From assembly GCF_013315695.1 (NCBI RefSeq), contig NZ_CP054353.1: DNA of 64,000 nt. One strand, 5' to 3'. The stretch's first letter is position 1, and each line of letters begins with the position of its first letter. A program made the position numbers and the translations under genes. The notes below the pieces were generated by a model. That model ran no database searches, had not been told where the DNA came from, and worked only from the letters and a program-made list of their open reading frames with translations. This DNA comes from Escherichia coli (lineage in GTDB: Bacteria > Pseudomonadota > Gammaproteobacteria > Enterobacterales > Enterobacteriaceae). Positions 1,546-11,306 of this stretch are shown in pieces.

Positions 1546-2727
1546 ATGAGTGAAACACGCTTTCACGGTGCACGCGTCAAAGAAAACACCGACCTTGTGA
1601 CCGCGATTAATGACATTGATTCCAGTGTCATCGGTATCGTGGCCACGGCGGACGATGCAGACAGCGACGCGTTCCCGTTAAACAAACCCGTATTGATCAC
1701 CCGCGTGGCGAATGTGCTGGGTAAGGCAGGCACAACAGGCACGCTGTACAAAACGCTCAAGGCGATTTCCGACCAGACCAGCCCGAAGGTTATCGTGGTG
1801 CGTGTGGCTGAAGCCGGAGAGGAAGGTGAGACACAGGATCAGCTTGTCATCGGTGGCTCGCAGGCTGACGGCAGCTACACGGGCATGTATGCCCTGCTGG
1901 TTGCTGAACAGGACGAGAGCATTGGTTACCGCCCGCGCATTCTGGCGGCTCCCGGCCTGGATACCGAAGCAGTCACATCCGCCCTGTGCGTCATTGCGGA
2001 CAAGCTCCGCGCCTTTGTGTACGCCGGATGTAACGGGTGCGACACGATGGCGGAGGCAATCACTTACCGTGCGAAGTTCTCCGCGCGTGAGCTGATGCTG
2101 CTGTGGCCTGACTTCATTGCCTACAACCCGGTGAGCGGAAATAACGAAACATTTCCGGCAGCGGCGTATGCGTGCGGGTTGCGTGCGCGGATTGACAGTG
2201 AACAGGGCTGGCACAAGTCACTGTCCAACGTGGCGCTGAAAAATGTTCTCGGTATGTCGCAGCAGGTGTTCTGGTCGTTGCAGGCCGAAGACAGTGATGC
2301 GAACAACCTGAACAACAAGGAAATCACCACGATTATTCGCCGTAACGGCTTCCGCTTCTGGGGGAACCGTACTGCCGAAACCAGCGACTACATCTTTGAG
2401 GTGTACACGCGCACAGCGCAGATTCTGGCAGATACCATCGCTGAGGCGCAGTTCGAAACCATTGACGAACCGCTGACCCCGGCGAACGTGAAGGACGTGA
2501 TTAGCGCCATCCGCGCAAAACTCAACGCCCTGGTCACCGCCGGGAAACTCATCGGTGCGGAGTGCTGGTATGACGTGCTGGACAACGGCACGACGGATTT
2601 GCGTCAGGGGCGCGTGCGCATCCGCTACAAGTACACGCCAGTGCCGCCGATGGAAGATCTGACGCTGTATCAGACCTTCACGGATGAGTATTTCGACTCC
2701 GCTTTTGCAACGCTGGGAGGTGCGTAA
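1546..2727 (+). CDS. FI: Contractile tail sheath protein FI
   Basis: MSETRFHGARV...FPLNKPVLI...GFRFWGNRT...YTPVPPMEDLTL closely resembles P2 FI; RBS GGAGG upstream of ATG 1546. Confidence 0.9.
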   Translation: MSETRFHGARVKENTDLVTAINDIDSSVIGIVATADDADSDAFPLNKPVLITRVANVLGKAGTTGTLYKTLKAISDQTSPKVIVVRVAEAGEEGETQDQLVIGGSQADGSYTGMYALLVAEQDESIGYRPRILAAPGLDTEAVTSALCVIADKLRAFVYAGCNGCDTMAEAITYRAKFSARELMLLWPDFIAYNPVSGNNETFPAAAYACGLRARIDSEQGWHKSLSNVALKNVLGMSQQVFWSLQAEDSDANNLNNKEITTIIRRNGFRFWGNRTAETSDYIFEVYTRTAQILADTIAEAQFETIDEPLTPANVKDVISAIRAKLNALVTAGKLIGAECWYDVLDNGTTDLRQGRVRIRYKYTPVPPMEDLTLYQTFTDEYFDSAFATLGGA

Positions 2728-3243
2728 ATGGCTGTACCACGTTACGTTCGCCAGTTCACGCTGTTTGTGAACGGCAAAAACAAAATCGGCACGGTGACAG
2801 GCGTCACTCTGCCCAAGCTGACCCGAAAAACCGAAGCCTATCGCGGTGGCGGGATGCTGGGTGCGGTGCATATTGACCTCGGACTGGATGACGGCGCACT
2901 GGATGCCTCGTTCACCACCGGTGGGGTTGAAAAAGAGCTGCTCCAGGAATACGCCACTGACATTAACGAAGTGGCGCTGCGCTTTGTGGGTGAGCTGTTC
3001 ACCGATGGTGAGGAAAGTCAGCTCCTTGAGGTGGAGATGCGCGGACGCATCACGGAAATCGACCGTGGCGAAACCAAACAGGGCGACACCACACAGTACA
3101 CCTTCGCCGTCAAAAACACCTACTACAAGGAGTCGGTGGATGACAGTGATGTGACAGAAATCGACCTGCTGAACTTCATCTACAAAAAAGACGGCCAGAA
3201 CGTCTTTGGTGACCGCGTGAGTTCGGCGCTCGGTCTGAACTGA
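2728..3243 (+). CDS. FII: Tail tube protein FII
   Basis: 171-aa ORF immediately after FI, as in the P2 FI-FII pair; size matches P2 FII. Confidence 0.85.
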   Translation: MAVPRYVRQFTLFVNGKNKIGTVTGVTLPKLTRKTEAYRGGGMLGAVHIDLGLDDGALDASFTTGGVEKELLQEYATDINEVALRFVGELFTDGEESQLLEVEMRGRITEIDRGETKQGDTTQYTFAVKNTYYKESVDDSDVTEIDLLNFIYKKDGQNVFGDRVSSALGLN

Positions 3244-3289: not shown

Positions 3290-3673
3290 ATGGCAGCAAA
3301 GAAAGATGACATCATGAACAGCGAAATCGTCGCAGGTGACACCACCACTGAAAACATCGATGTGGCAGAGGAAAAAACGGGGGTGAAGTTATCCTGCCCG
3401 GTGGTGCGTGGCGAACGCGTTATTGACTACGTGGAGATTGGCGAGGAAATCCGTCAGGCAGGCTCGTTGCGCGGGCTGTCTCTGATTGAGGTGCTGAACC
3501 TCAAAACGGACCCGATGATGACGCTGCTTTCGCGCGTGACCGCACCACGCCTGAAGCTGGCAGAAATCCAGACACTGGACACCGGTGATTTCGTGGCGCT
3601 GGCGACTATGGCTGCGAATTTTTTTGCTCCCACGGAGTCTGCGAAACCGTCCGTGGCGGTGATGGAAGCGTAA
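3290..3673 (+). CDS. E: Tail assembly chaperone E
   Basis: Position between tube and tape measure; contains a run of seven T followed by G at 3619..3626, matching the P2 E/E' slippery site type. Confidence 0.75.
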   Translation: MAAKKDDIMNSEIVAGDTTTENIDVAEEKTGVKLSCPVVRGERVIDYVEIGEEIRQAGSLRGLSLIEVLNLKTDPMMTLLSRVTAPRLKLAEIQTLDTGDFVALATMAANFFAPTESAKPSVAVMEA

Positions 3674-3836
3674 TCACGCTGGCGAAGTTCGACAACGTTG
3701 AAGAACTGGTCGCTGATATAGCAGTCGTGTTTAACTGGTCGCCCGGCGAGATATTCTCAATGCCTCTCGTCGAGGTGATGAGCTGGCGTGAGCGGGCGGC
3801 GCAACGTAGCGGAGTCCGCAACAGTGAAATCCCTTG
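3290..3836 (+). CDS. E': E+E' fusion product predicted from -1 programmed frameshift at 3619..3626
   Basis: After a -1 slip on the T-run, the frame stays open to TGA at 3834..3836 and encodes ...VITLAKFDNVEELVADIAVVFNWSPGEIFSMPL..., resembling the conserved P2 E' extension. Confidence 0.55.
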
Positions 3837-6800
3837 ATATTCGTGTCAGCTTTGGCGCAATTGACCGGCTGACATGCCCGACCGAAAACGCCCGCCGTCA
3901 GGTGGGCGCTCTCACTGAATCCCTTCAGAAGACGCAGAACAACATACAGGCGCTCGACAGACAGTCGAAGGTGTTCGATCGTGCCGCCGGAAATCTCAGT
4001 AAATACCGCGAACAGATTGCCCGCGCGGAGCAGAGGCTCGCCGGGCTGCGAAAGGCAGAGCAGAACGGTAACATCCTCTCCGAAAAGCAGCGCGAAACGC
4101 TGGCGGCACTCTCCGCGCGGCTTGAGCGCCTGAACGAGCTGCGCACGCGCGAGCGCGAAAAACTCCAGGCGGCGGCTGGCGAAATGCGTAAACATGGCAT
4201 TCTGCTTTCCGGCAGCAGCCGCACCATCGAAAGTGCCGTTCGTCGCACGCAGCAGTACAACGAGCAGCTCGAGCGTGAACGGCAGGCTCTGGCTCGCGTG
4301 ACGCAGGCACAGAGCCGCTATGAGGCCGCGAAGGCACAGGCGGAAAAACTGCGCAACACAGGGGCTGTGGCGATGGCGGCGGGTACAGGCGGCCTGTATG
4401 CGGCGCAGCGCATGATGGCTCCGGCGATGGAGTCCGAACAGCACGGTGCGGTCATCGCAGCCGGTTCGGGGGAAGGCGCACAGGATGGCGCACGTTACAC
4501 CCACATCATCCGTAACATACAGGCTGACGGTCTCGCTGATTTTGCCGGTGCTGCGGAGGCCGTGAGTGCGGTACGCAGCACGCTCGGCGCACTGGGCGAC
4601 ACCGGTGACAGGGAGCTTGAGCGCATCAGCCGTCGTGCGCTGGATATGCGGACCGTCTTTGGTGTTGATGTGCCGCAGAGCATTCAGGCCGCTGCCATCA
4701 TGATGAAGAACGGGCTGGCCGCCAGCAGTGACGAGGCTACTAACCTGATGACGGCAGGGATGCAGCGCATGTCCGCTGAAATGCGCGATGAACTGCCGGA
4801 AATTCTGCATGAGTATTCCACCCACTTCCGCAACATGGGCTTCACCGGCAGCGAGACAATGAGTCTGCTGGTTGAGATGGCAAAGCAGGGCAAGTTTGCG
4901 CTGGACAAAACCGGCGATGCCGTGAAGGAGTTCAGTATCCGTGGTTCGGATATGTCGAAATCCAGTGTTTCAGCGTATGAGACACTTGGCCTGAATGCCG
5001 AACGGGTGTCTGCTGCCATTGCTCAGGGGGGCAGTACCGCACGCCAGGCGATGCAGGTGACCGCCCGTGCACTGCTGGCCATCCGTGACCCGGCAGAGCG
5101 GGCGAACACGGCCATTGCGTTATTCGGCACCCCCGTTGAAGACCTTTCCGTTGACCAGATCCCGCAGTTCCTGAGGGCGCTGGCTGATGTTCGTGACAAT
5201 CTGGGCGATGTCACCGGTGTGGCAGACCGCATGGGGCAGACGCTGCGCGGTAATCTCTCCGGCGATATTCAGGCGCTGAGTGGTGCGTTCTCAGGGCTAC
5301 GCACGGACATCTTCGGTACTGTGACCGAGGATTTGCGCGGGCTGGTTCAGACGGTGAGCGCGTGGGTGACCCGGATGCGCGAATGGGTCGGAGAGCATCA
5401 GGCGCTGGTCAGGGTGCTGGTACTGGCGGGCGGGAGTGTTCTGGCGCTGTCTTCTACGTTCGGTGCGCTGTCACTGACGCTCGGGCTGATTGCGGGGCCG
5501 CTGGCAAAACTGCAACTGGGACTGGGGCTGCTGACGGGGGGCGGCGGCATTGGTGGTGCTGTCCGGCTTGTGTCTGCGATGGCGCTGCGCCTGACGGGGC
5601 TGCCTGCGCTGTGGGGGCTGGTCACGGGGGCGGTGTCGGTACTGGGTGGTGCAGTGGGGGCGCTGTTCAGCCCGGTCGGGCTGATTGTTGCCGCCCTGGT
5701 GGGCGGCGCGGTTCTGGTGTGGAAATACTGGGATCAGATCAGTGCGTTTTTTTCCGGCTTTTTTGCCGGAGTGTGGGAGGCGCTGCAACCGCTGCGGGAA
5801 GCCTTTGCGTCGCTGGCTCCGGTGTTCGGGCTGATTGGCGATGGCATCAAAGCCGTGTGGGAATGGTTCACCCGCCTGCTTGAACCTGCAAACGCCTCAA
5901 AAGAGACACTCGACAAATGCACCAGCGCCGGGGAGTCGTTCGGGAAAACGCTGGGGTGGGTCATTCAGAACATTGTGCTGGGGCCGCTGACACTGCTTCT
6001 TGATGGCCTCGGCACAGTGCTGAAGTGGCTGGGTGTTATCCCGGATGGCATCAGGGAAGCGCAGAAGGAGACGCAAAAACTCCAGGAGAGCGCCGCAAAA
6101 CAGGCCACACAAAAAGCGCCGGTTGCGTGGGAGTGGGATCCTGCACAGAAAAAAATGGTGCAGAAAACATGGTCGTGGTCATCAGATGCAGCGGAAAACA
6201 ACGGTGACAATAAACCCGCAATACCTGCCCCTGCGGTTCCCGGAGAGGTGAAGGGAACGTCAGACAATCCGGTCGGCAAACCCGGTAGTAAATCCCCGCT
6301 GGATGAGGCATGGTTCCGGCAGGGGATACAGAAAACCGCCAGCAACACCGGCGGGCTGCTTGAGGAAACCAAAAAACGTACTGGTCCCGGCGATATTGTT
6401 TTCAAAAACCTGCCCGGACCCGAAATCATTCACGGCGAGTGGAAAGCACCGCAGGTTATCCGGACAGTGCAGGCGGTATCGGCGGGCGGAGGACTGGCGG
6501 ATGCGCTGACAACGCTCTGGCAGAAACTCACCGGAAGACAGACTGCTTCACCCGTTCCGGTCGTGAATATTCCTGCGCCAGTGGAGAGAGTGGCACGTCA
6601 GGTATCCACGCTGCCACAGCCGCAGCACAACGAGGCAAATACAGAACTGGTTGCCGGTATTCAGCGCGTGCATGAGGCTGTGAACAGTCCGGGGGGAGAG
6701 ACGGTATCGCCTCCACCTGTGGTGAACGTTCTGATGCCAGCAGTGAATGTTCCTGCGCCAGTGGTGAGTGTGGCGCGTCAGGTATCCACGCTGCCGCAGC

Positions 6801-7288
6801 ACAACGAGGCAAATACAGAACTGGTTGCCGGTATTCAGCGTGTGCATGAGGCGGTGAACAGTCCGGGTGGAGAGACGGTATCGCCTCCACCTGTGGTGAA
6901 CGTTCTGATGCCAGCAGTGAATGTTCCTGCGCCAGTGGTGAGCGTGGCCCGTCAGGTATCCACGCTGCCGCAGCACAACGAGGCAAATACAGAGCTGGCT
7001 GCCGGTATTCAGCGCGTGCGTGAGGCTGTGAACAGTCCGGGTGGAGATGTGGCTTTATCTGTTCCTGTTGCGGAGGTTATCCGTCCACCGCTGCGACCGG
7101 AGTCCGTCAAAAAAGAAACCGCGCCACAAACGCAGGCTGCGGTATTTTCCGGTGAGATACACGTGCATCTGCACAACGTCAACACGCAGAATCCGCGTGA
7201 ACTGGCAAAACTGGTTGGCGAGGCTGTCCGCGAAGAGATGCGCAGACAGGTGCGTACAGGCATGAACAGCTTCCGTGACAGGGACTAA
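3788..7288 (+). CDS. T: Tail tape measure protein T
   Basis: 1166-aa ORF after E/E' with coiled-coil N-terminal part, Gly/Ala/Leu-rich hydrophobic core and internal tandem repeats; start codon uncertain (GTG 3788 or a downstream GTG). Confidence 0.85.
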   Translation: MSGRRNVAESATVKSLDIRVSFGAIDRLTCPTENARRQVGALTESLQKTQNNIQALDRQSKVFDRAAGNLSKYREQIARAEQRLAGLRKAEQNGNILSEKQRETLAALSARLERLNELRTREREKLQAAAGEMRKHGILLSGSSRTIESAVRRTQQYNEQLERERQALARVTQAQSRYEAAKAQAEKLRNTGAVAMAAGTGGLYAAQRMMAPAMESEQHGAVIAAGSGEGAQDGARYTHIIRNIQADGLADFAGAAEAVSAVRSTLGALGDTGDRELERISRRALDMRTVFGVDVPQSIQAAAIMMKNGLAASSDEATNLMTAGMQRMSAEMRDELPEILHEYSTHFRNMGFTGSETMSLLVEMAKQGKFALDKTGDAVKEFSIRGSDMSKSSVSAYETLGLNAERVSAAIAQGGSTARQAMQVTARALLAIRDPAERANTAIALFGTPVEDLSVDQIPQFLRALADVRDNLGDVTGVADRMGQTLRGNLSGDIQALSGAFSGLRTDIFGTVTEDLRGLVQTVSAWVTRMREWVGEHQALVRVLVLAGGSVLALSSTFGALSLTLGLIAGPLAKLQLGLGLLTGGGGIGGAVRLVSAMALRLTGLPALWGLVTGAVSVLGGAVGALFSPVGLIVAALVGGAVLVWKYWDQISAFFSGFFAGVWEALQPLREAFASLAPVFGLIGDGIKAVWEWFTRLLEPANASKETLDKCTSAGESFGKTLGWVIQNIVLGPLTLLLDGLGTVLKWLGVIPDGIREAQKETQKLQESAAKQATQKAPVAWEWDPAQKKMVQKTWSWSSDAAENNGDNKPAIPAPAVPGEVKGTSDNPVGKPGSKSPLDEAWFRQGIQKTASNTGGLLEETKKRTGPGDIVFKNLPGPEIIHGEWKAPQVIRTVQAVSAGGGLADALTTLWQKLTGRQTASPVPVVNIPAPVERVARQVSTLPQPQHNEANTELVAGIQRVHEAVNSPGGETVSPPPVVNVLMPAVNVPAPVVSVARQVSTLPQHNEANTELVAGIQRVHEAVNSPGGETVSPPPVVNVLMPAVNVPAPVVSVARQVSTLPQHNEANTELAAGIQRVREAVNSPGGDVALSVPVAEVIRPPLRPESVKKETAPQTQAAVFSGEIHVHLHNVNTQNPRELAKLVGEAVREEMRRQVRTGMNSFRDRD
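6560..7060 (+). repeat. About 2.7 tandem copies of an in-frame ~174-bp unit inside T
   Basis: Peptide unit PAPVVSVARQVSTLPQHNEANTELVAGIQRVHEAVNSPGGETVSPPPVVNVLMPAVNV repeats near 6565, 6747 and 6921; the first copy carries an extra PQ. Confidence 0.8.
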
Positions 7289-7301
7289 AGGAGACGCAAT
7301 T

Positions 7302-7760
7302 ATGATGATGATTTTTGGCATGTTTGTGTTTGAACTGAAAACGCTGCCGCATCAACAGATTCAACAAAACAAAACGTGGCGGCATGTGAAAAATGAGCGA
7401 ATCAACCGTTCTGCGGCCTGGCAGTATATTGGCGCAGGTGACGACCAGATCACGCTGTCCGGTCTGCTGTACCCGGAAATTACCGGCGGTGAGGTGTCGC
7501 TGACACTGCTGAACACCCAGGCCTACACCGGATGTCCCTGGCCGCTGATTGATGGTACGGGGCAGATTTACGGAATGTACGTGATTACGGGATTACAGAC
7601 CACCCGCTCCGAACTGGATCGCTACGGGAAGGCAAAAAAGATTGAGTTCTCCATCAGCTTTCAGCGGTGTGATGAGGATATGCGGGAGAGGCTTCAGTCT
7701 GCTTCTGCAGGTGATTTACTGAACACGCTTAAAGACAAAATGGCGATAGCGGCATTCTGA
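7302..7760 (+). CDS. U: Tail protein U
   Basis: MMMIFGMFVFELKTLPHQQ...DDQITLSGLLYPEITGG... resembles P2 gpU; RBS AAGGAG before ATG 7302. Confidence 0.85.
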   Translation: MMMIFGMFVFELKTLPHQQIQQNKTWRHVKNERINRSAAWQYIGAGDDQITLSGLLYPEITGGEVSLTLLNTQAYTGCPWPLIDGTGQIYGMYVITGLQTTRSELDRYGKAKKIEFSISFQRCDEDMRERLQSASAGDLLNTLKDKMAIAAF

Positions 7761-7769
7761 ATAAAAAAA

Positions 7770-7796
7770 GAGGGAGTGTAAAAAGCACTCCCTTAT
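7770..7796 (+). terminator. Hairpin terminator candidate after U
   Basis: AGGGAGTG-loop-CACTCCCT followed by a T-containing tail. Confidence 0.45.
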
Positions 7797-7882
7797 TGCC
7801 TTCATGGAAAAGAAGCAAATGTTGTCAATACATTCTGACTATATATAAATCGCCCGATGAAGGCAATGGTGATGTTCGGGAA

Positions 7883-7908
7883 ATAAAAAAGCCCTCACAA
7901 AGAGGGCG
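7883..7908 (-). terminator. Rho-independent terminator candidate (minus strand)
   Basis: GCCCTC-ACAAA-GAGGGC preceded on the plus strand by an A8 run, i.e. hairpin plus U-run on the minus strand. Confidence 0.5.
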
Positions 7909-8070
7909 GCATGCATTGTGTGAAGATTTAATTTTTCTGCTTGCAGGGGGATTATATTGAACGGTATTCATTCAATGCAATATTTTTAATTGTCATTATC
8001 ATTAATGAAAATGTTTCTTGTGTTTTTGTTGCTCTGATTACAATCCCGTTTATTACTGTGTCTTTGCGGC

Positions 8071-8097
8071 AAAAAAAAAGCCCGCACGGGGCGGGCA
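8071..8097 (-). terminator. Rho-independent terminator candidate (minus strand), just downstream of the decayed G
   Basis: GCCCGC-ACGG-GGCGGG hairpin with an A9 run on the plus strand (U-run on minus). Confidence 0.6.
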
Positions 8098-8140
8098 AAG
8101 AATGTTTGCATGTGTAGAACAGTGCGGGATTATAAATATA

Positions 8141-8711
8141 TTATGCGTTCTGAAAAGTCCCCTTTGATGGAGATTCAGGCCATACCAGCGCATTATAACA
8201 ATCTTTATTCATCACGGAAGTGAACGTCAACTGCTGAAGTTCCCTAATATATTCAATCCACGTAGCCAACCTTCCCTTGTCTGCATTGCTGATGGTGCCG
8301 GGCAATAACTCAGATTGCCAGATTCTGATCCTCTCTTTTGCCTCCGGCAGCAGGGGATTTCGTTGTCATTCTGCTTTAGCCTGCCACTTTTCAGGTGGCA
8401 GCACATGACGAACAATATTTTCATCATCAAATATCCAGTTACCTGAGTCATCAGCACGTTGGTTAGCGTTAATATCAGAAGTATTAACAACACTAAAACC
8501 GACATGATTAAGTGTTGATGCCTCTCTGGTAATGGTGACAATAATATTATTTCGTTGTAAATCATTTTGATTTTATCTGGTCGAAAGGTCCCTGCTTCGT
8601 TATGTCAGTTTTATCGCCTTCAGAGGAAACCAGATTACTTTGTGCTTCTTTTTCTAACACATACAGTCCCGGAGTTAATATTGCCTGTTTTATGTTCTTG
8701 AGTGCATCATA
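8141..8711 (-). pseudogene. G: Decayed tail fibre assembly gene G (frameshifted, with an early in-frame stop)
   Basis: Minus-strand translations in two frames give NNIIVTITREASTLNHVGFSVVNTSDINANQRADDSGNWIFDDENIV and ...ADKGRLATWIEYIRELQQL...VWPESP, resembling P2 gpG; the N-terminal part reads MMHSRT-stop. Confidence 0.6.
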
Positions 8712-8767
8712 TTAATCTCTTACATATTGTATCTGGTGAAATTTATAATTTTCTGAAGCTGCCTGAA

Positions 8768-8898
8768 AGAATTGAGTTTCCTGCAGGCTTTCAATGGTGT
8801 GATGAGGATATGTGGGAGAAACTCCAGTCTGCTCCTGCAGGGGGGGCTTACTGAACACTATCAAAGACAAATCTTCGTCGTTGATCGCATTCCCTTAA
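8768..8898 (+). pseudogene. Diverged second copy of the 3' end of tail gene U (fragment)
   Basis: DNA is homologous to 7631..7760 (roughly four-fifths identical by eye, TGTGATGAGGATATG core conserved), with a G7 run causing a frame break; the 5' part of U is absent. Confidence 0.6.
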
Positions 8899-8903
8899 CC
8901 TGA

Positions 8904-8938
8904 CGCCACCACCCCACACAGATGACGGGGTGGTGGCG
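8904..8938. terminator. Strong GC hairpin between the U fragment and the tail-fibre operon
   Basis: CGCCACCACCCC-loop-GGGGTGGTGGCG perfect 12-bp stem; no clear U-run, so terminator function is uncertain. Confidence 0.35.
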
Positions 8939-8943
8939 TGATT

Positions 8944-9240
8944 TCACCAGTAACTAACCAGCAGCCAGAACAACAGGCATATTGCCACTGGTGCAGCAAA
9001 ATCCATCAGGCTTCCGGCATCCCACACGCGCGGATCAAAACCACCCCACCAGGGCATGTTAATTCGTTTCCCTTTCCCGAATTTTTCAATCCAGCGATAT
9101 TCTGCCTGGGTGTGTTCACGCGCAATGAAGAACGAGCAACCGGCTATCGCTCCGTAAACCCAGTTTCCCGTAAGAATGCCAGCCAGTACCTGCGCAGCCA
9201 CGGCACAAAGTGCATGAAGGACAGGCGTTATATCCATCAC
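8944..9240 (-). CDS. Small two-TM membrane protein of unknown function, last gene of the tail-fibre operon
   Basis: 98-aa ORF with hydrophobic N- and C-terminal segments; GGGAGG RBS 9 bp upstream; co-directional with and immediately downstream of H and orf92. Confidence 0.6.
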   Translation of the reverse strand: MMDITPVLHALCAVAAQVLAGILTGNWVYGAIAGCSFFIAREHTQAEYRWIEKFGKGKRINMPWWGGFDPRVWDAGSLMDFAAPVAICLLFWLLVSYW

Positions 9241-9249
9241 TCCCTCCCT

Positions 9250-9528
9250 TCAGCTCCATTCCCGAAGCGGTGCTTCCAGCTCCACCACATAATCAGAGAA
9301 CACAGAAACATCAAACGTATCATCAAGAATACGAATGTTGACAAAATAACCGTCATTCCGGATACAGACAGGTTCTCCCTCTTCATTTTCCCCTGTTTCT
9401 GTATAGGTGAAACCAATTTCATCGACTAACAGTTTGTTCTGGAGGTCTTCATTTTCCTCCCAGCCAAGAGATGACAGGAGGGCTTTAAACTGCTGTTTGT
9501 CATGAAACTTCAAAGTCAAATCTTTCAT
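9250..9528 (-). CDS. Acidic 92-aa protein translationally coupled to tail fibre H (candidate non-canonical fibre chaperone)
   Basis: ATGA start/stop overlap with H at 9525..9528; no resemblance to P2 gpG noticed; occupies the position G holds in P2. Confidence 0.55.
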   Translation of the reverse strand: MKDLTLKFHDKQQFKALLSSLGWEENEDLQNKLLVDEIGFTYTETGENEEGEPVCIRNDGYFVNIRILDDTFDVSVFSDYVVELEAPLREWS

Positions 9529-11306
9529 ATTGCCTCTCTTAATTGCCTGTCATTTAATTCTTTATGCCATATGCGGAAATTACGAATGTGACCAAACAGA
9601 TGTCGTTCTCCAGTACTCGTTCGCCCTCCAATACGGATAATTGCGGAGTTCTGAATATATGACCATGTGGTTTTTGTTTCGCCGGATAACCGTCCGTTAC
9701 TGACTGAGCATGTAGACTGATCTGACTTTACTCGCATCCCTATAACCATTTTTTCAAGTGATGCGTTTTCGTTTACCCGCATGTTAGCCCCGCCTATATC
9801 GCAATAAGGAAATCCGTCGTAATCCGTCGAACGACCGAATCCAAGAATAATTTCCTCTCCAGTTTGATGACCACTGGTATTAAGAACACGCGGTGCTGCA
9901 TTTGGCGTTTTATACCAGTTCTTATGTACCTCACAAAGAACAGTAAAAGGAGGATTATAAAGATTATTCTTAACCGGAACTGTCACAATATCACTTGCAC
10001 GTGTTGCTGGTGTTGCACCCGATATAATAAATGATGATGCGCAGGGGCCATTTTCAACCTGAGGGGTGGACAGGAAAACATAATCTCCTGATTCAACGAC
10101 ACCACCTTCTTTCGGAGTGTATTGTATTGCCGATGTTATGTAGGACTCATCAATTGCCTGAATCGTTGCCTCTGCAAAAATCCAGCCGGTAACCTCATCT
10201 TTGTTAACTCGGGCAGTGATCCTGTCGGCAGCTCCTCCTGTGATTTTAACTGATAAAGATCGCGTATTAACAATGGCATATCCAAGGTTAGATGATGTGT
10301 TGCCATCGTAAGATTCAAACCTGATCCTTAACATGAGTTCCAGATCAGTTTTAAATCTGCACGATGTCGTCACGCACTTATTATCGCCTGAAACATCGAC
10401 GGCTCCGGTTACTGCAACTGATGCCATGTTAACAGGCAGGGACTGCCCAATCAGAGAATCGTTACAGACGAACTTTCCATAGGTAAAACCAGAACTGTCC
10501 GTCCCGGTTTCGGGAACATCCATATTTACCGACTTGCCCCAGTTGACCGGGGTTTCCGAATTGAGCATGTAGTTTGTTCTTTGCCCTTCAATAAGCAGTC
10601 CATCGCGTTCAAATCGCGGCTCATTAATTTCAGCTATTTTCAGTTCACCGGATTTATTGATATAGGTTGCCGTTGATGCGCGACTGAAACTAACCTGTTT
10701 ATCACTGGCAACCTGAACCACATCGTCACCAATGGTGATTTTTTTATAGCCCGGTGCGAACCCCGTAAGCATATCCAGTGAATCGTTAAACGGTATCCAC
10801 ACATCAGGCAGCGGCGGTACAGACTCCTTTTCCTGCGCAACATATTCTTCAACATAGGCGCGGGTGGCGAGCACGACAGAGGGATCAACTTTCAGTTCGA
10901 CAGACGAAGCACTGGAAACCACAACAATCATGCGAATCGTCTGCGTGCGCCCGCTTCCCTCGGTGAGTACAGGCTTGTAGGTTTCGGGGCAGTTCGCCAC
11001 GGCAATCATCACGCCGTCGCTGTCAAAAAGCCCAATCTCGCGGATCCAGAACCCCCCTTTATCTTCCGGGATAATCATCTCGGCGATAAGCTGGCTGGCA
11101 TCAGACGCGCTGATGCTCAGTTGATTCAATGGGGCGCTGTATACCGTGTTCACCAGATTTTCCATGGAAGCCTCCGGTTCCGGCAGGCTGCCGCCGCCAT
11201 CCCCCAGTTTCATGGTGGTGATGGATATTTTCGAGCCGCTGGCCACCGCCTTTGCCAGACGGGCGGCACCCTTGTCAGTCAGAACAGAAAAATATTTTAC
11301 AGTCAT
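9525..11306 (-). CDS. H: Tail fibre protein H (conserved P2-like N-terminus, divergent C-terminal region)
   Basis: N-terminus ...ITTMKLGDGGGSLPEP...WIREIGLFDSDGVMIAVANCPETYKP...SGRTQTIRMIVVVSSASSVELKVDPSVVLATRAYV matches P2 gpH; the rest is unrelated, as expected for a receptor-binding part. Confidence 0.85.
   Translation of the reverse strand: MTVKYFSVLTDKGAARLAKAVASGSKISITTMKLGDGGGSLPEPEASMENLVNTVYSAPLNQLSISASDASQLIAEMIIPEDKGGFWIREIGLFDSDGVMIAVANCPETYKPVLTEGSGRTQTIRMIVVVSSASSVELKVDPSVVLATRAYVEEYVAQEKESVPPLPDVWIPFNDSLDMLTGFAPGYKKITIGDDVVQVASDKQVSFSRASTATYINKSGELKIAEINEPRFERDGLLIEGQRTNYMLNSETPVNWGKSVNMDVPETGTDSSGFTYGKFVCNDSLIGQSLPVNMASVAVTGAVDVSGDNKCVTTSCRFKTDLELMLRIRFESYDGNTSSNLGYAIVNTRSLSVKITGGAADRITARVNKDEVTGWIFAEATIQAIDESYITSAIQYTPKEGGVVESGDYVFLSTPQVENGPCASSFIISGATPATRASDIVTVPVKNNLYNPPFTVLCEVHKNWYKTPNAAPRVLNTSGHQTGEEIILGFGRSTDYDGFPYCDIGGANMRVNENASLEKMVIGMRVKSDQSTCSVSNGRLSGETKTTWSYIQNSAIIRIGGRTSTGERHLFGHIRNFRIWHKELNDRQLREAI

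Follow-up and report, generated by a model that had tools for sequence, protein, structure and literature searches.

A P2-type slippery heptamer and an E' extension point to programmed -1 ribosomal frameshifting of the tail assembly chaperone in an Escherichia coli prophage

In a P2-family prophage of Escherichia coli, the gene for the tail assembly chaperone very probably undergoes programmed -1 ribosomal frameshifting, by which a minority of the gene E product would be extended by the E' domain. The prophage was analyzed in a stretch of DNA of 64,000 nucleotides, which is referred to as the window. The site is known biology: it is an ordinary P2-type E/E+E' site, located at the expected place and trivially different from the textbook P2 site, and it opens no new biological question. 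Its importance lies mainly in annotation, as E' is entered as a small gene of its own in RefSeq and in most phage records of this lineage. In addition, the apparently intact site speaks for a functional tail module in the prophage. The features on which the analysis is based are as follows, with positions counted from the first letter of the window.

268..~1400, minus strand: gpD homologue (Pfam Phage_GPD)
1546..2727: sheath gene (Pfam Phage_sheath_1 and related domains)
2728..3243, plus strand: tail tube gene, FII homologue (Pfam Phage_tube PF04985, E-value 3.3e-46)
3290..3673, plus strand: gene E homologue in the zero frame, predicted tail assembly chaperone of 127 aa (PHROG 103, alignment with P2 gpE)
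3619..3625, plus strand: putative slippery heptamer T_TTT_TTT, with UUU in the P site and UUU in the A site in the E frame, and G3626 next
3625..3837, plus strand: predicted E' extension, 70 codons of the -1 frame and the stop codon TGA at 3835..3837 (Pfam PF06528, PHROG 1756)
3824..7288, plus strand: tape measure gene T, with a probable GTG start at 3824 (Pfam PhageMin_Tail PF10145)
7302..7760: gpU homologue (Pfam Phage_P2_GpU)

The genes are arranged in the order sheath-tube-E-E'-T-U, with E between the tube and tape measure genes and each neighbor assigned by Pfam. The sequence identifies the locus as a P2-family prophage tail module. The remaining prophage genes, including those for the capsid, portal, terminase, and replication endonuclease, extend up to ~32 kb, on the basis of the features that lie in the part of E. 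coli prophages matched by megablast. E alone matched PHROG 103 'tail protein' (E-value 1.4e-28), and its C-terminal half showed a weak match to Pfam PF10109 Phage_TAC_7 (16 bits, with a cut-off of 25), to which P2 gpE scores 47.8 bits. E thus appears to be a divergent, N-terminally extended gpE. No NCBIfam model matched E, E', or their fusion, and a PDB sequence search returned no meaningful relative (best E-value, 0.5).

Two differences in gene content and arrangement were observed around E. First, compared with E. coli relatives of 98% identity, E is shorter by 33 nt (11 codons) encoding NTADNAEAAEE (window 3365..3375 versus 4145..4210 of L001, an E. coli prophage). The missing segment, which belongs to the acidic N-terminal extension, is flanked by direct repeats GCAGAGGAAAA, and E has 127 aa in the window versus 138 aa in these relatives. 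Second, the gpD homologue precedes the sheath gene and is encoded on the opposite strand, whereas the gene order in P2 is FI-FII-E-T-U-D-ogr; in relatives, an ogr/Delta-like gene is found beyond the gpD homologue. The inverted upstream placement of gpD appears to be a lineage trait and not damage, because it is common to the E. coli relatives.

A run of seven T followed by G near the end of E, which was pointed out in the first-pass annotation, is indeed present: T7 occupies 3619..3625 and the G is at 3626, inside the ORF 3290..3673. The zero frame around the seven T reads GCG AAT TTT TTT GCT, and the run is therefore an in-register X_XXY_YYZ heptamer, positioned 52 nt or 15 sense codons upstream of the E stop codon TAA. 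A productive -1 shift is possible only between 3589 and the E stop, and T_TTT_TTT is the sole X_XXY_YYZ heptamer in this 85-nt span (3589..3673), over which both frames are open. The T7 run by itself is unremarkable, with 29 such runs observed across the window versus 17.5 +/- 5 expected. In the five tail genes, 5 in-frame canonical heptamers occur among 2011 codons, corresponding to ~0.07 expected per 28-codon overlap, and at least 70 open -1 codons are found downstream of only ~10% of the codon positions. The abundance of T7 runs and this ~10% are the points in favor of a coincidental T7, or of a frameshift mutation in a dying prophage, with a functionless open -1 frame. Chance is excluded, however, because the -1 peptide has homologs and the position of the heptamer is kept in relatives, as described below. 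The neighboring tail genes are also full length, which speaks against decay.

The -1 frame is open over 3589..3834 and overlaps E by 85 nt. As had been proposed, slipping by -1 keeps the frame open: the first codon after the slip is TGC (3625..3627), and 70 codons past the heptamer are open up to TGA at 3835..3837. The stop codon had been placed at 3834..3836 in the first-pass annotation, one base before its actual position. The predicted E+E' fusion consists of 182 aa, namely 112 aa of E and 70 aa of E'. Aligning the -1 translation to the gpE' family, the check that had been suggested for this peptide, did reveal the similarity to P2 E' that had been claimed. The 70-aa peptide matched Pfam PF06528 Phage_P2_GpE with 53.7 bits (gathering cut-off, 23; E-value 1.5e-14; profile positions 1-36 of 37), as well as PHROG 1756 (E-value 2e-25) and PHROG 6416. 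In a 15-sequence alignment of the window E' with 14 from other P2-family elements, which share the family motif ..LVADIAV.F.W.P.E...M...E...WR..A..RSG, all four invariant and all nine near-invariant residues are kept in the window. When the E-E' fusion was compared with the annotated P2 gpE+E' by BLASTP, a single colinear block was obtained (38% identity over 147 aa, E-value 1e-32), in which the NFF junction of the window lies opposite the GFL junction of P2.

The substitution pattern is also that of a coding sequence. In the part of E' located 3' of the E stop, the differences at the first, second, and third positions of the -1 codons numbered 14/11/25 and 13/10/27 versus phages Chuche and phiT5282H, respectively; L012, in which an indel puts the sequence out of register, was left out of this comparison. 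This third-position bias indicates that the -1 frame is under protein-coding selection. Taken together with the open frames, the conserved residues bear out, at the level of sequence, the earlier view that the chaperone pair is likely to be intact. The overlap of the E' end with the start of T was claimed correctly as well. Although the mechanically called ORF of T begins at GTG 3788, the homologue of the RefSeq start, which was placed via the RefSeq CDS 4658..7726 of the 98%-identical L001, is GTG 3824, which GGAG precedes by 9 nt. E and T share a reading frame, and with GTG 3824 as the start, E' ends 14 nt inside T.

E' might alternatively be a separate small gene that has its own start codon and involves no frameshift, in line with the stand-alone CDSs of 39-54 aa found in RefSeq and in several phage records. 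We consider this very improbable in view of the start codons. The RefSeq CDSs named 'GpE family phage tail protein' in the E. coli prophages L001, L002, and L022 begin with ATA, ATC, and CTG at three positions, so that the annotated starts differ among near-identical relatives, and none is accompanied by a Shine-Dalgarno sequence. The -1 frame of the window contains no ATG, GTG, or TTG before 3727. The canonical starts beyond it (GTG 3727, ATG 3760, and later ones at 3775 and 3778) are all within the conserved domain and likewise without a Shine-Dalgarno sequence, and use of the first of them would cut off the conserved LVADIA motif. E' thus seems to have no credible start codon of its own. 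Furthermore, the -1 frame is open upstream to the heptamer in every relative examined, and a joined E+E' product is annotated in the records of P2 and Burkholderia phage Musica. The improvised E' starts in RefSeq are typical of an annotation pipeline faced with a domain match that lacks a real start, and the stand-alone CDSs in L001, L002, and L022 are a systematic mis-annotation of frameshifted E'. On the sequence evidence, E and E' ought to be annotated as one joined CDS in which a -1 shift occurs at 3625.

We then turned to the conservation of the slip site. The comparison covered 18 annotated P2-family loci, from E. coli prophages and from phages of Escherichia, Enterobacter, Klebsiella, Salmonella, Zymomonas, Ralstonia, Burkholderia, Mannheimia, and Aeromonas, and 80 IMG/VR loci (52 distinct sequences) collected in a scan with the E' alignment. 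A scan of viral contigs with a single protein had given only four close loci. Four further close IMG/VR relatives, L006-L009, were looked at separately from the 18 annotated loci. An in-frame X_XXY_YYZ heptamer was found at the homologous place in all 98 loci. In each of the 52 distinct IMG/VR sequences, its distance to the E stop is 49-58 nt, compared with 52 nt in the window. Its nucleotides vary: among these 52 sequences, 39 carry T_TTT_TTG, eight C_CCT_TTC, three A_AAT_TTT alone, one T_TTT_TTA, and one T_TTT_TTC. Most of the annotated loci also have T_TTT_TTG; the others include A_AAT_TTT in phage 503458, C_CCT_TTC in a Klebsiella phage, and G_GGA_AAG in Mannheimia phage phiMhaA1. The T_TTT_TTT form is shared by the window, L001, L006, L007, and the Zymomonas element L015. 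In L002, L022, L008, and L009, which are 91-92% identical to the window in DNA sequence, the homologous place is occupied by T_TTT_TTG (T6GG), and because such close relatives carry this heptamer, the T7 form is regarded as a recent single-base variant. Accordingly, what had been termed a conserved T7-G site stands in part: a slippery heptamer does occur at the P2-homologous position, but it is a single-base variant of the P2 heptamer and not an identical copy, and the G falls outside it.

With the position kept in 98 loci, the domain match, and the retention of all conserved E' residues, the probability of chance or decay is practically nil, and that reading is effectively refuted. Variation of the nucleotides combined with maintenance of the slippery register is the signature that would be expected of ribosomal slippage, and not of a polymerase effect or coincidence. 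This distinction bears on another explanation, namely that RNA polymerase stutters on T7 and produces some mRNAs with one extra U, from which E+E' is translated, either alone or together with ribosomal slippage. One inserted U would bring E' in frame, and the window lineage has seven T versus six in P2. E. coli genes also avoid U7 and A7 runs in each of the three frames, for which transcriptional slippage is one suggested reason (PMC4066793). Nevertheless, T6GG occupies the homologous place in the four 91-92% identical relatives, and the members with A_AAT_TTT, C_CCT_TTC, and G_GGA_AAG have homopolymer runs of only 3-4. Efficient slippage of bacterial RNA polymerase usually needs runs of ~8-9 or more. 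Moreover, the conserved feature is a codon-register pattern, which is relevant to the ribosome only. We therefore regard transcriptional slippage as an improbable explanation, while a minor contribution of it on T7 is possible.

Stimulatory elements were sought on both sides of the heptamer. RNA structure in the 100 nt after the heptamer of the window did not stand out (z = -0.95), and the 60 nt downstream in the window and seven relatives gave z values from -1.3 to +1.2 with no shared stem. A 7-bp stem (3630-3636/3650-3656) was considered as a candidate stimulator and rejected: it was no better than shuffled sequences, and it is broken by the loss of one pair in L002. No Shine-Dalgarno-like stimulator was seen by eye upstream of the heptamer, in 3600..3618. 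A downstream structure is also absent in P2 and Burkholderia P2-like phages (PMC3091744), and given this report on P2, the missing structure neither weakens nor supports the frameshift reading.

The anatomy, homology, and conservation of the site were observed as described above, and from here we infer the slippage, the slip rate, and the binding roles of the products. In programmed -1 ribosomal frameshifting at this site, most ribosomes would read E (3290..3673) to its TAA and produce the 127-aa protein. In a minority of ribosomes, the two tRNA-Phe on U_UUU_UUU (3619..3625) would slip one base back in tandem, and each would again find a perfect match in the UUU UUU of the -1 frame. The slipped ribosomes would resume at UGC 3625..3627 and produce the 182-aa E+E', whose stop codon at 3835..3837 lies within the beginning of T. 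As in P2 (E/E+E') and lambda (G/GT), the part common to both products may bind the tape measure protein, and the E' domain, in a small and fixed share of the molecules, may recruit the tube protein so that the tail polymerizes to the correct length; these roles are modeled on P2 genetics cited in PMC3091744 and on lambda G/GT studies reviewed in PMC5009743. In E. coli, H_HH.U_UU.Y motifs rank with the most shift-prone, and a shift rate of >0.1% is reached by U_UU.U_UU.U even without stimulators (PMC4066793). The H_HH.U_UU.Y class takes in U_UU.U_UU.U, A_AA.U_UU.U, and C_CC.U_UU.C.

It is conceivable, though we consider it unlikely, that the change from T_TTT_TTG to T_TTT_TTT is non-neutral and raises the E+E':E ratio, possibly tuned to the unusually long, repeat-expanded tape measure of the prophage. 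The A-site tRNA would change from Leu to Phe, allowing perfect re-pairing in both sites, and the U7 run could add transcriptional slippage. As for the tape measure gene, its C-terminal part contains an in-frame tandem repeat at 6563..7047, with a unit of 174 bp (58 codons), 2.8 copies, and 93% match. T of the 98%-related L001 is without the tandem repeat and has 1022 aa versus ~1154 aa in the window. With a longer tape measure, a longer tail would be expected.

Further observations concern gene U and the region behind it. U (7302..7760) contains an in-frame A_AAA_AAG heptamer at 7634..7640, a sequence that is the most shift-prone motif in E. coli. A -1 slip there would lead to a stop after one codon, with the last ~40 residues lost. 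The heptamer is present in L001 and absent from P2 gpU, and it may be a coincidence. A stretch of ~1 kb located 3' of U (7761..8871) is AT-rich and contains short ORFs only (the bin 8001..10000 has a GC content of 0.44). The stretch terminates in a second, degenerate copy of the 3' end of U (8766..8871, 81% identical to 7637..7739) and finds only a partial match in related E. coli prophages; it looks like a cargo insertion or a recombination scar behind U.

The proposed frameshift is most readily compared with that of P2. The E/E+E' frameshift in the FETUD tail operon of P2 was described by Christie et al. 2002, as cited in PMC3091744, where the fusion is stated to arise by a -1 shift, both products to be needed for tail assembly, and TTTTTTG to be the slip sequence. 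In the P2 record NC_001895, E of 91 aa and a joined E+E' CDS of 142 aa are annotated, together with a 'site of -1 translational frameshift'; the site in the record reads GGT TTT TTG TCG, i.e., T_TTT_TTG with six T. The two systems are alike in that the tube and tape measure genes flank a two-frame layout, E' ends inside the start of T, E and E' are homologous, the slip sites align with each other, and there is no downstream structure. They differ in the A-site codon, which is Leu UUG (T_TTT_TTG) in P2 and Phe UUU (T_TTT_TTT) in the window, and in length: E has 91 aa in P2 and 127 aa, including an extra acidic N-terminal segment, in the window, and the fusions have 142 and 182 aa, respectively. 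Likewise, the overlap of E and E' after the slip is 21 nt in P2 versus 48 nt in the window, where 13 more residues link the slip site to the conserved E' domain. Gene D and ogr follow U in P2, whereas in the window lineage they precede the sheath gene and are encoded on the opposite strand.

The closest sequence relatives, with the same architecture, are E. coli prophages (e.g., NZ_CP080260) and Xuanwuvirus or P88-like Peduoviridae, namely Escherichia phages 503458, P88, and Chuche. The E. coli prophages are 98% identical to the window in DNA sequence, and the 503458/P88/Chuche group is 51-54% identical in protein sequence and 70-73% over the aligned DNA. These phages differ from the window in having A_AAT_TTT and/or T_TTT_TTG. 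In the records of both the phages and the prophages, the frameshift is unannotated and E' is a separate small CDS. The G/GT system of lambda also has its chaperone gene before the tape measure gene and yields a C-terminally extended form by a -1 shift; the shift occurs at a low level, and tail assembly depends on a fixed ratio of the products (PMC5009743). The tail of lambda is of the non-contractile siphovirus type, in contrast to the contractile myovirus tail of the window prophage, and its slip site is G_GGA_AAG, a heptamer that is used within the P2 family as well, by Mannheimia phage phiMhaA1.
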